DNA of 27,823 nt, from positions 1-27,823 of IMG/VR virus record IMGVR_UViG_3300030372_000610, one strand, 5' to 3'. Made by a program: the position numbers and the translations under genes. Of the stretch, positions 9,152 through 11,151 are shown piece by piece; position 1 is the first letter of the stretch, and every line of letters begins with the position of its first letter. Under the pieces are notes generated by a model that was not told the origin of the DNA, ran no database searches, and saw nothing but the letters and a program-made list of their open reading frames with translations. Source of the DNA: a virus (lineage: Duplodnaviria > Caudoviricetes).

Positions 9152-10060
9152 ATGGCGATAAGTAGAGCACAATTATCTAAAGAGCTAGAGCCAGGTCTTA
9201 ATGCTCTTTTTGGAATGGAGTATGCTAGATACGAAAATCAGCACTCTGAAATTTTCACAACTGAAACATCAGACAGATCTTTTGAAGAAGAAGTAATGCT
9301 ATCTGGTTTTGGTGCTGCACCGACTAAGTCGGAAGGTACTGGAGTGGCATTCGATGATGCAAATGAAGCTTATACTGCAAGGTATAACCATGAGACTATT
9401 GCTTTAGCATTCAGTATCACAGAGGAGGCTGTTGAAGATAATCTTTATGACAGACTTTCTGGTAGATACACAAAAGCTTTAGCACGTTCAATGGCACACA
9501 CCAAGCAAGTTAAAGCTGCAGCTGTATTAAACAATGCGTTTGATAGCACTGTTACAGGCGGTGACGGCAAGGAACTCTGTGCAACAGATCATCCATTAAC
9601 AAATGGATCAACTTTTGCAAATGAACCTTCAACTGCGGCAGACCTTAATGAAACATCTCTTGAAGATGCCTTGATTAAGATTGCTGGATTTGTTGACGAA
9701 AGAGGTCTTATTGTAGCATTGAGAGGAATGAAGTTAATTATTCCTAGACAGTTACAATTTGTTGCTGAGAGAATTATGAACTCAACATTGCGTGTAGCAA
9801 CTTCAGATAACGATCTTAATGCACTCAAGAGCATGGGTATGTTACCAGAAGGTTATGTCGTTAATGACTTCTTAACTGATACAGATGCATTCTTCATTAT
9901 GACAGACACTCCTCGTGGGTTCTTGCATTTTGAGCGTGTAGCTTTATCAACTGGTATGGAAGCAGACTTCGATACTGGAAACATGAGATATAAAGCTCGT
10001 GAGAGATATTCTTTTGGATTCTCTGATCCAAGATGTGTATTTGGTTCACCAGGTGCATAA
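9152..10060 (+). CDS. Major capsid protein (HK97 fold expected)
   Basis: AAGGAG SD. MAISRAQLSKELEPGLNALFG...EEAVEDNLY...GGDG...HPL...DFDTGNMRYKARERYSFG.SDPR; followed by an intrinsic terminator. Confidence 0.9.
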   Translation: MAISRAQLSKELEPGLNALFGMEYARYENQHSEIFTTETSDRSFEEEVMLSGFGAAPTKSEGTGVAFDDANEAYTARYNHETIALAFSITEEAVEDNLYDRLSGRYTKALARSMAHTKQVKAAAVLNNAFDSTVTGGDGKELCATDHPLTNGSTFANEPSTAADLNETSLEDALIKIAGFVDERGLIVALRGMKLIIPRQLQFVAERIMNSTLRVATSDNDLNALKSMGMLPEGYVVNDFLTDTDAFFIMTDTPRGFLHFERVALSTGMEADFDTGNMRYKARERYSFGFSDPRCVFGSPGA

Positions 10061-10084
10061 CTGAAAAATAAATTCTGGGATTAG

Positions 10085-10114
10085 AAGGGCGGCACTTGCC
10101 GTCCTTTTTTATTT
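10085..10114 (+). terminator. Intrinsic terminator after the MCP
   Basis: Stem AAGGGCGGC, loop ACTT, stem GCCGTCCTT, then a T-run. Confidence 0.9.
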
Positions 10115-10124
10115 GTGGTATGAT
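10096..10124 (+). promoter_or_regulatory. Sigma70-type promoter overlapping the terminator
   Basis: TTGCCG-N17-TATGAT with an extended -10 TG at 10116-10117. Predicted +1 is ~10131. Confidence 0.65.
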
Positions 10125-10130
10125 TTATAT

Positions 10131-10205
10131 GAAATAATAGTTTTTACTCATTATTTCCTCCCAAGGAAAAAACTTTGCCAGATTGCATTGCAATCTGGTT
10201 TTTTT
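10131..10205 (+). ncRNA. Candidate ~75-nt small RNA with anti-SD/anti-start segment
   Basis: Bounded by a promoter and a terminator. 5' hairpin GAAATAAT/ATTATTTC, a CCTCCC motif, and no usable + strand ORF. Confidence 0.55.
10178..10205 (+). terminator. Second intrinsic terminator
   Basis: CCAGATTGC, loop ATT, GCAATCTGG, followed by 7 T. Confidence 0.85.
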
Positions 10206-10216
10206 CATTATATAAA
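10188..10216 (+). promoter_or_regulatory. Candidate promoter for downstream structural genes
   Basis: TTGCAA-N17-TATAAA (lacks the -7 T). Predicted +1 is ~10223. Confidence 0.45.
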
Positions 10217-10272
10217 TAATCAACCGACAATCGCATAATGTGATTGACATTTGCCAAGACGGGAGATTTCAA

Positions 10273-11151
10273 ATGGCTAATACAACCTTTTCTGGACCTA
10301 TAAGGTCACAAAATGGAATGAAGTTAATCAGTAAAGATTCTACTACTGGTTTAATTCAAGATAGAACTCTTGGGGATTACCCACAAGATACAAGACGTTT
10401 TTATTTAGAAGAATGGTTTTTACAAAGACCTGGCTTAAATGCAAATATTGACCAAGCCGCCACAGTTGAAGTTCAAAGAGCTTTGAATAGAAACTGGGAA
10501 GCACTTGGAACAAATATGACTACTGCTTTATGTACTTTTAATACTACATCAGCAGGAATTGTAGCAACAACAGCAGGTGCTGATCAAGACCAAGCAATCA
10601 TTACTCCACATTTAGATACTGCTGCAACAGCATGGGCAGGGTGTTTATGGGGTACTGAAAACCAAGTGCACTTTGAAACATCAATAGCATTACCTGCAAT
10701 TGATAATCAAAAAGCATATGCTGGTTTAAAACTAACTAATGATCAATTGATAGCAACAGACGCTGATCAAGCATATTTTAAGTTTCAAACAGATGCTACA
10801 AACTCTGAATCTTTTGATGATTTTACAAAACTGCATTTTGTTCACAGTATTGGCGGCACAGATCATATCAGTGTTTTACCGATAACTGTGGCTGCGAGTA
10901 CAATTTATCATTTAAAAATTGAATTTGATAGTTCAAGACAAATGTCAATTTTTGTAAATGGTACTCAGTATAATGTGACAAGCACAGCTGGTTCTACAGG
11001 TGGTACATCAGTTACAACTGGTACAACTAAATCAGCGGCTATGACAGATGATGTTGATTTAATTCCTTATATTGGAATTGAAGCTGGTGCTGCTGCGGCA
11101 GAGGCTATTCATATTCATTATGTTAAAATGAGCAGAATAATTAACGAGTAA
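10273..11151 (+). CDS. Putative minor capsid/head-fibre protein with beta-sandwich (lectin-like) domain
   Basis: GGGAG SD before ATG 10273 (MANTTFSGPIRS). C-terminal YHLKIEFD...IFVNG pattern resembles a ConA-like fold. Confidence 0.6.
   Translation: MANTTFSGPIRSQNGMKLISKDSTTGLIQDRTLGDYPQDTRRFYLEEWFLQRPGLNANIDQAATVEVQRALNRNWEALGTNMTTALCTFNTTSAGIVATTAGADQDQAIITPHLDTAATAWAGCLWGTENQVHFETSIALPAIDNQKAYAGLKLTNDQLIATDADQAYFKFQTDATNSESFDDFTKLHFVHSIGGTDHISVLPITVAASTIYHLKIEFDSSRQMSIFVNGTQYNVTSTAGSTGGTSVTTGTTKSAAMTDDVDLIPYIGIEAGAAAAEAIHIHYVKMSRIINE

Follow-up and report, generated by a model that had tools for sequence, protein, structure and literature searches.

Directly behind the major capsid protein gene of the phage studied here lies a short spacer in which an earlier note had read a self-contained small RNA that is the exact antisense of a ribosome-binding site, and this raises the questions of whether such a gene exists, to which known RNAs it is related, and which messages it would silence. 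The window, that is, the whole stretch of 27,823 nucleotides that was analysed, comes from a tailed phage and covers its packaging and structural half, with the early region lying outside it. Its capsid protein shares 71% identity with that of pelagiphage HTVC023P and 55-56% with those of roseophages CRP-901 and CRP-902, and, judged by sequence, the window is an HTVC023P-type marine phage. HTVC023P and CRP-901/902 are described as belonging to one family, with a lytic cycle suggested for CRP-901/902 (PMC10149686).

The predicted small-RNA unit

After the capsid stop codon come T1 with a promoter that overlaps it, the unit, T2 with a second promoter-like site that overlaps it, and the Mu-gpT-DE motif, in that order. 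The features are as follows.

9152 to 10060, plus strand: major capsid protein gene (Pfam Phage_capsid_4, Mu-like_gpT; HTVC023P-type), which defines the slot
10083 to 10114, plus strand: T1, an intrinsic-terminator-like hairpin closing the capsid mRNA, whose 3' arm contains the -35 element of the small-RNA promoter
10096 to 10124, plus strand: predicted sigma-70-type promoter with extended -10 (TTGCCG 10096-10101, 17-nt spacer, TG 10116-17, TATGAT 10119-10124)
10125 to 10151, minus strand: ORF of 8 codons, MSKNYYFI, judged a by-product of the antisense design
10131 to 10205, plus strand: predicted small RNA of about 75 nt, its start placed by promoter spacing
10131 to 10157, plus strand: 5' hairpin, which buries the anti-AUG (CAU 10149-10151) in the window's member; across the family its sequence is hypervariable and its fold is kept
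10154 to 10163, plus strand: seed UUUCCUCCCA, 9/10 identical to the alpha-r8 decamer
10170 to 10176, plus strand: AAACUUU linker right before the terminator, matching AgACUU of the suhB model and GGACUU of the SorY model
10177 to 10205, plus strand: intrinsic terminator T2 (stem 10177-10199 plus U-run)
10188 to 10216, plus strand: second promoter-like site TTGCAA-N17-TATAAA, read from the sequence with no scan flag and invariant in 12/12 close variants
10223 to 10275, plus strand: Mu-gpT-DE RNA motif (RF03012) ahead of the next gene, a known element separate from the small-RNA unit

The promoter, the hairpin, the CCUCCC (10157-10162) and the terminator named in the earlier note are all present where it had placed them, and the reverse complement of 10141-10162 is indeed a perfect Shine-Dalgarno (SD) sequence, spacer and ATG-Ser-Lys. 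The promoter matches its consensus at 9/12, a match that is by itself at chance level, with 14 such sites in the window vs. 13.9 in shuffles. The predicted folding energy of the 75-nt unit is -21.8 kcal/mol (z -4.36; 0/200 shuffles as good), a score that owes much to the terminator, given that the 5' 40 nt folded alone reach a z of -2.29. Because the promoter is at chance level in the window and the fold score comes largely from the terminator, the case for the unit therefore rests on the comparison with its relatives. Within the predicted fold, the unpaired probability is at most 0.05 at 10150-10157 and rises to 0.54-0.88 at 10158-10163, and this mostly single-stranded stretch is the predicted toehold.

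The T1 and T2 stems also vary between relatives. The T1 stem carries a C-G to U-A double change in 4/12 close variants, and T2, which scores as a minus-strand terminator as well (10198-10178), shows G-C/G-U/A-U interchange at its first pair and A-U/G-U at another. The alternative hairpin TTTCCT-CCCA-AGGAAA, which had been proposed to follow the first one, is present in the sequence, but we do not retain it since its GG is kept in only 3/12 close variants. A UGGGA in the capsid 3' UTR (within 10076-10082), kept in 12/12 close variants, can pair with the seed at 10158-10163 in a read-through transcript, and this pairing could mask the seed unless the RNA begins at its own promoter. The second promoter-like site at 10188-10216 probably drives the downstream gene. 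The Mu-gpT-DE motif scores 47.6 bits in the window (cut-off 49, E 6.9e-10) and is above the cut-off in 12/16 relatives; variants with similarly low scores occur in L003, L004, L010, L014 and L574.

Among the assembled contigs of seven RNA runs and one run of unrecorded kind, six of the seven RNA runs were without coverage of 10115-10195, a gap that is not evidence of absence because contigs cannot show RNA ends and short RNAs may be lost. One 151-nt RNA-library contig, with a depth of 2, covers 10086-10237 in a close variant and thus crosses both predicted ends, which fits read-through or DNA and not a discrete RNA.

A family of units in the post-capsid slot

Capsid loci were gathered by protein similarity (80), by the unit's motif (47), the two sets that are biased towards the window's relatives, and by a capsid C-terminal pattern that takes no account of the spacer (120), plus cultured phages. 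The 223 loci having a capsid end and at least 110 nt downstream gave 181 distinct spacers in 108 clusters. CCTCCC occurs in 24/108 cluster representatives vs. 2.8 (max 8) in dinucleotide shuffles, with its opposite-strand form in 2, and it is followed by a hairpin and U-run in 22 of these 24. An ACT lies within 20 nt past the core in 21 of 22 representatives (shuffles 4.3, max 11), and an extended -10 of the form TGnTAnnnT stands 18-50 nt before the core in 16 of the 21 representatives with room for it, core variants included (shuffles 1.8, max 6). The stretch from promoter to core folds with a z of -2 or lower in 15/18 representatives despite their unrelated sequences, and core positions 3-7 are predicted to be unpaired with an average of 0.81-0.95 across the family. 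A MAFFT alignment of 40 units gave no consensus pairs; the family model is therefore sequence-only, and the 5' hairpin was judged by folding each sequence against its shuffles. A second arrangement, of 3'-UTR type, has the core within 16 nt of the capsid stop (L005, L006, L035, L041, L048 and L190).

In a quick tree of 107 capsid C-terminal fragments, limited by its few columns and related rows, all 27 rows with a unit belong to one clade of 65 rows (SH-aLRT 98) and 0/42 rows outside it, SAR11 phages among those, carry a unit. Inside the clade, the distribution is patchy, requiring at least 16 changes on the tree. This patchiness, together with the 84/108 clusters having no CCTCCC, speaks for a functionless remnant, either of a terminator-plus-promoter module that was duplicated or of a minus-strand gene since lost, whose start is seen here from its reverse face; the opposite strand of any gene start has the form CAT...CCTCCC, and 61/101 distinct viral matches to that pattern are open minus-strand frames. 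However, a remnant would not predict a plus-strand promoter, a plus-strand U-tail and a 5' hairpin refolded from unrelated sequences, nor the ACU linker or the core identity with SorX/SorY described below, and within the close clade the core stays fixed while its flanks turn over. We consider such a remnant improbable. The comparison across related post-capsid spacers supports the claim of a self-contained anti-SD small-RNA gene, and the unit is very probably real as such a gene.

What the window's member has beyond the core is less general. A CAT placed 5-8 nt before the core, always as TCAT, was found in 9/19 of the representatives that have 14 nt or more upstream, where 2.3 would be expected (P=0.0005, overstated like the other family P values because cluster representatives are related), and the complement of these TCAT-bearing units reads SD, spacer, AUG, A. 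The anti-AUG is missing in 4/5 of the 5' types of the window's own sub-clade (L003/L086, L004, L567 and L574), some members of which also have CCUCCC changed to CCUCUC. The antisense match to AUG-Ser-Lys thus holds for the window, with CAT enriched family-wide, but as a lineage-specific trait and not as a property of the whole family; on the sequences compared, the anti-SD core, linker and terminator are the fixed parts and the anti-AUG extension is a lineage option.

The same comparison bears on the alternative reading in which the minus-strand mini-peptide MSKNYYFI is the function, with the plus-strand RNA possibly being its antitoxin-like antisense. Its frame is preceded by a strong SD spaced by 5 nt and persists in the 5' type to which the window belongs, and a bare TATAAT is found on the minus strand at 10213-10208. 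Nevertheless, the equivalent minus-strand frames in relatives range from 2 to 35 codons and share no peptide except a capsid-antisense tail, for which we reject the mini-ORF; in addition, the AUG is lost in those same 4/5 sub-clade types, a minus-strand terminator lies directly upstream of the frame, and no minus-strand promoter scored there. This reading is thus extremely improbable.

In cultured phages, CCTCC is absent from the post-capsid spacers of HTVC023P, HTVC027P, 023Pt_psg01, DSL-LC04 and MinM2, and BLASTN of the unit against cultured phages gave chance-level matches only. Roseophage CRP-902 (L254 1504-1565) has a variant core, CCUCUCUGUUGG, directly after the capsid stop and before a terminator, scoring 17.9 bits with the family model; the core of CRP-901 is more degenerate. 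CRP-902 is the only cultured test case found. A window-type core with terminator also turned up in two other mobile-element contexts among 48 distinct metagenome matches, namely L540 461-535, after an unannotated ORF, and L585 469-545, upstream of a gene with an ORF 8516-like start, both with 33 bits on suhB.

Probable kinship with alphaproteobacterial small RNAs

No Rfam match reached the gathering level in the whole window, and no phage copy reaches an Rfam cut-off. The best match on the unit is suhB/MmgR (RF00519), with 20.4 bits and an E of 0.017 against a gathering cut-off of 41, and suhB matches of 21-36 bits (best L035, 35.8) lie at the same slot in 7/16 relatives scanned, with SorX matches in three. 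The Rfam check thus gave no match above cut-off, while its best weak match on the unit recurs in relatives. Such weak suhB scores prove little because 78/81 Rhodobacteraceae genomes have suhB matches at E<=0.05, commonly of 24-35 bits, only 9 being above the cut-off, in contrast to the true alpha-r8/suhB members of this family at 52-68 bits. Given that the window's unit has only 20.4 bits and that such scores are common, the homology of the window's member rests on short motifs.

According to PMC12559287, what defines the alpha-r8 RNAs (SuhB/MmgR/SisA-D, RF00519) is a weak hairpin followed by a single-stranded UUUCCUCCCU, together with a terminator and an anti-SD signature. Like them, the unit has about 75 nt, with a 5' hairpin followed by a UUUCCUCCC core, an ACUU linker and an intrinsic terminator, and the same anti-SD logic. 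The decamer UUUCCUCCCU is exact in L035 and L043; the window's seed differs from it in the tenth base, which is A and not U. Decamer positions 1-4 are predicted to be paired in the window and 5-10 mostly open, and unlike the alpha-r8 model, its 5' hairpin is longer, is without GCCC...GGGC, and buries those first four seed bases. Also unlike alpha-r8 genes, which lie beside FGase/dinB, the unit is phage-encoded and flanked by the capsid gene and Mu-gpT-DE, with no FGase linkage in the window; the paralogues SisB-D are likewise without FGase linkage in the account given by PMC12559287.

A second line of kinship leads to SorX (RF02784) and SorY (RF02651) of Rhodobacter sphaeroides. A 15-nt core of ACCUCCCUGUUGGAC type, followed by a terminator in the phages, is common to phage relatives L027, L036 and L068 and to chromosomal loci L289, L291, L292 and L293, which follow a LysR gene and reach 52-85 bits on SorY. 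The three phage units have 25.7-30.6 bits on SorX (phage relatives overall 18.8-30.6) and a UUCAU 6 nt before the core, as does host locus L396, which is above the SorX cut-off (50.5 vs. 46.6). The phage copies include both promoter-driven and 3'-UTR-type arrangements, comparable to SorX/SorY, but they stay under the two cut-offs (46.6 and 111) and stand behind a capsid gene, whereas the host SorY-like loci stand behind the LysR gene. The window's core is CCUCCCAAGG and not ACCUCCCUGUUGGAC, and its unit gave no SorX or SorY match in the Rfam scans.

The AbcR/cuckoo RNAs that the earlier note had brought in turned out to be analogues in logic, with alpha-r8/SuhB/MmgR/SisA and SorX/SorY as the closest kin by Rfam matches and shared cores; the unit gave no Rfam match to AbcR/cuckoo families at E<=10. 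AbcR1/2 are described as using two anti-SD motifs, and AbcR/NfeR1 as silencing transporter binding-protein mRNAs through anti-SD seeds, but these RNAs measure 114-121 nt and carry two or three such motifs in loops or between stems, as described in PMC8844928, while the window's unit has one in 75 nt. VpdS of phage VP882 and PreS of lambda resemble the unit as phage-encoded small RNAs acting on host mRNAs with Hfq, PreS on dnaN; both come from temperate phages, and the review PMC12197685, in the sections that concern them, does not describe them as copies of a host small-RNA family.

From the shared cores we infer that the RNA family of these phages was captured from alphaproteobacterial hosts, while the window's own member is possibly a case of convergence; the latter is predicted to work like an alpha-r8/SorX RNA and is not classed as a member. 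The literature searched contained no description of this element, of alpha-r8/SorX phage copies, or of the capture by marine phages of a trans-acting host RNA family; a paper on alpha-r8 phylogeny that PMC12559287 cites lies beyond that search and may, itself or in its supplements, list phage copies.

In a different mode of action, the RNA would be mainly a decoy that occupies Hfq or titrates a CrfA-type host sponge RNA that normally neutralises alpha-r8 RNAs. CrfA is described as sponging SisA-D via the decamer (PMC12559287), phage VpdS as competing for Hfq (review PMC12197685), and the seed, linker and U-tail of the phage units are conserved while the 5' arm varies freely. Against a decoy, the anti-AUG at RBS-like spacing in the nine TCAT-bearing representatives points to mRNA start sites, and we hold a main decoy role to be improbable.

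Candidate targets

The candidate host genomes searched represent the class (401) and the family Rhodobacteraceae (251) of a Salibaculum bin. Among GTDB bins, capsid matches were found in three Rhodobacteraceae MAGs at 82-85% identity, probably bin contaminants because they are mixed with unrelated taxa, and none of the four bins with capsid matches has a suhB match at E<=0.001. Hfq is encoded in 5/5 small Rhodobacteraceae genomes tested.

With up to 2 mismatches, the 21-nt complement of the unit has 6 places in the 401 class-level genomes (control 1), one of which starts a periplasmic binding protein; the best have 1-2 mismatches, with no perfect target among the 401. With up to 3 mismatches, the 20-nt complement has 76 places in 63/251 Rhodobacteraceae-family genomes vs. 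5 for the reversed control. Of 30 loci taken from these 76, 18 are starts of ABC, TRAP or TTT substrate-binding proteins by Pfam (27 were scanned, and the three without usable ORF were counted as misses). A control RBS, the capsid gene's own (121 genomes), gave 0/19 binding-protein starts (15 scanned, four too short; Fisher P=9e-6), a control that begins Met-Ala and so disfavours signal peptides. The complement thus resembles binding-protein start sites, which is a likeness and not binding, and by sequence the transporter binding-protein mRNAs that the earlier note had put among its possible targets are the best-matching host class. Selected host binding-protein starts pair with the seed down to -31 kcal/mol. 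In the low-GC genome G529, binding proteins stand at only 2/7 plausible gene starts among 30 of its 71 GGGAGG sites, and the best-pairing start is a binding protein, in a genome that was picked through that match. For the SorX-type complement, only 1/4 genes behind it is a binding protein.

These targets are in keeping with what is described for the host RNAs: SorY lowers the TRAP binding protein takP in an Hfq-dependent manner (PMC4615379), SorX, of 75 nt and derived from a 3' UTR, blocks potA (review PMC9438474), SisA represses its targets via the decamer (PMC12559287), and SuhB with Hfq represses phbB and a TonB-dependent receptor (bioRxiv 10.64898/2025.12.09.693200).

Inside the window, the start of ORF 5856, suggested earlier as a partial match, does pair at -16.3 kcal/mol, but it ranks 4th of 44 start windows, none of which stands out as a target, and 90/1852 plus-strand windows reach -14 or better. 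In G654, a close relative of 46 kb (79% complete), the ten best seed-pairing starts of 75 ORFs are all on the early strand, at -17 to -22 kcal/mol; the strand difference averages -2.2, against +0.1 (sd 0.6) with shuffled seeds (Mann-Whitney P=0.04), and two of these early-strand starts have ATAATGAGT in common with the complement. When five unit-bearing genomes are taken together, early-strand starts carry GGAGG about twice as often (46/237 vs. 26/277), counts behind which the ORF calls are crude. Such data would suit a real anti-SD small RNA whose main targets are the phage's own early genes, switched off as late expression begins. However, three of the five genomes show no strand bias or the opposite one, G659, which belongs to the clade but has no unit, shows the same early cluster rich in GGAGG, no near-perfect self target exists in the five genomes scanned, and their energies stop at about -22 kcal/mol, weaker than those of the selected host starts. 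Early genes are an unlikely main target, and both the host and the phage early sets could be hit.

Proposed mechanism and its meaning

The explanation that we favour, at even chances, is that the unit is a phage-carried relative of alpha-r8/SorX/SorY, a predicted RNA of about 75 nt that would keep ribosomes off host mRNAs, above all the mRNAs for periplasmic substrate-binding proteins. Host RNA polymerase would start at about G10131, or, in members without a promoter of their own, the RNA would be cut from the 3' end of the capsid mRNA, as SorX is from its parent mRNA, and the U-tail would load it on Hfq. The open CUCCCA would then nucleate on a GGGAG(G) Shine-Dalgarno sequence, with pairing spreading over the spacer by unzipping of the 5' hairpin and, in the window's lineage, over the AUG too, so that translation of nutrient-uptake proteins would drop, freeing ribosomes for phage proteins, while variation in the 5' arm would shift the preferred targets from lineage to lineage.

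The phage capture of host metabolic genes is well known. A more tentative reading, plausible though somewhat short of even chances, is that the marine HTVC023P-type clade captured host alpha-r8/SorX-type regulators as "auxiliary regulatory RNAs" in a post-capsid hot-spot, with the 5' arm rebuilt into whole-start-site antisense guides shutting down nutrient-binding-protein synthesis. If true, this would be the RNA counterpart of auxiliary metabolic genes, in abundant marine phages. Silencing of substrate-binding proteins by the RNA, if it occurs, would alter which dissolved organic matter infected cells take up, and gene-only annotation would miss the cause. The natural 5'-arm variants of the family would serve as ready-made specificity controls.

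Further observations on the slot and on related genomes

In G654 (L346-L348), GGGAG/GAGGG RBSs are favoured by early-strand genes and AAGGAG by late-strand genes (1 vs. 6), a contrast that is a possible handle for class-specific translational control. Among the L081-L127 promoters, two close 5' types no longer have the final T of the -10 hexamer, with TG-n-TA kept; a weak last T of the -10 is typical for alphaproteobacterial promoters. Tandem units are present in L022, L043 and L047, with CCUCCA, a degenerate form, ahead of the first terminator and a complete CCUCCC unit ahead of the second, which suggests module duplication. The same slot also holds inserted protein genes, a small hydrophobic ORF or longer unannotated ORFs (L016, L017, L020, L021, L048, L009, L060, L064 and L067). 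The post-capsid slot may be a small-RNA hot-spot. A different promoter-hairpin-terminator unit, with CCCUCAUU or CCCCAUU, occupies it in L025, L072, L078 and L185, and L025 contains UUCCCCUC, given as the AbcR aSD2 motif in PMC8844928.
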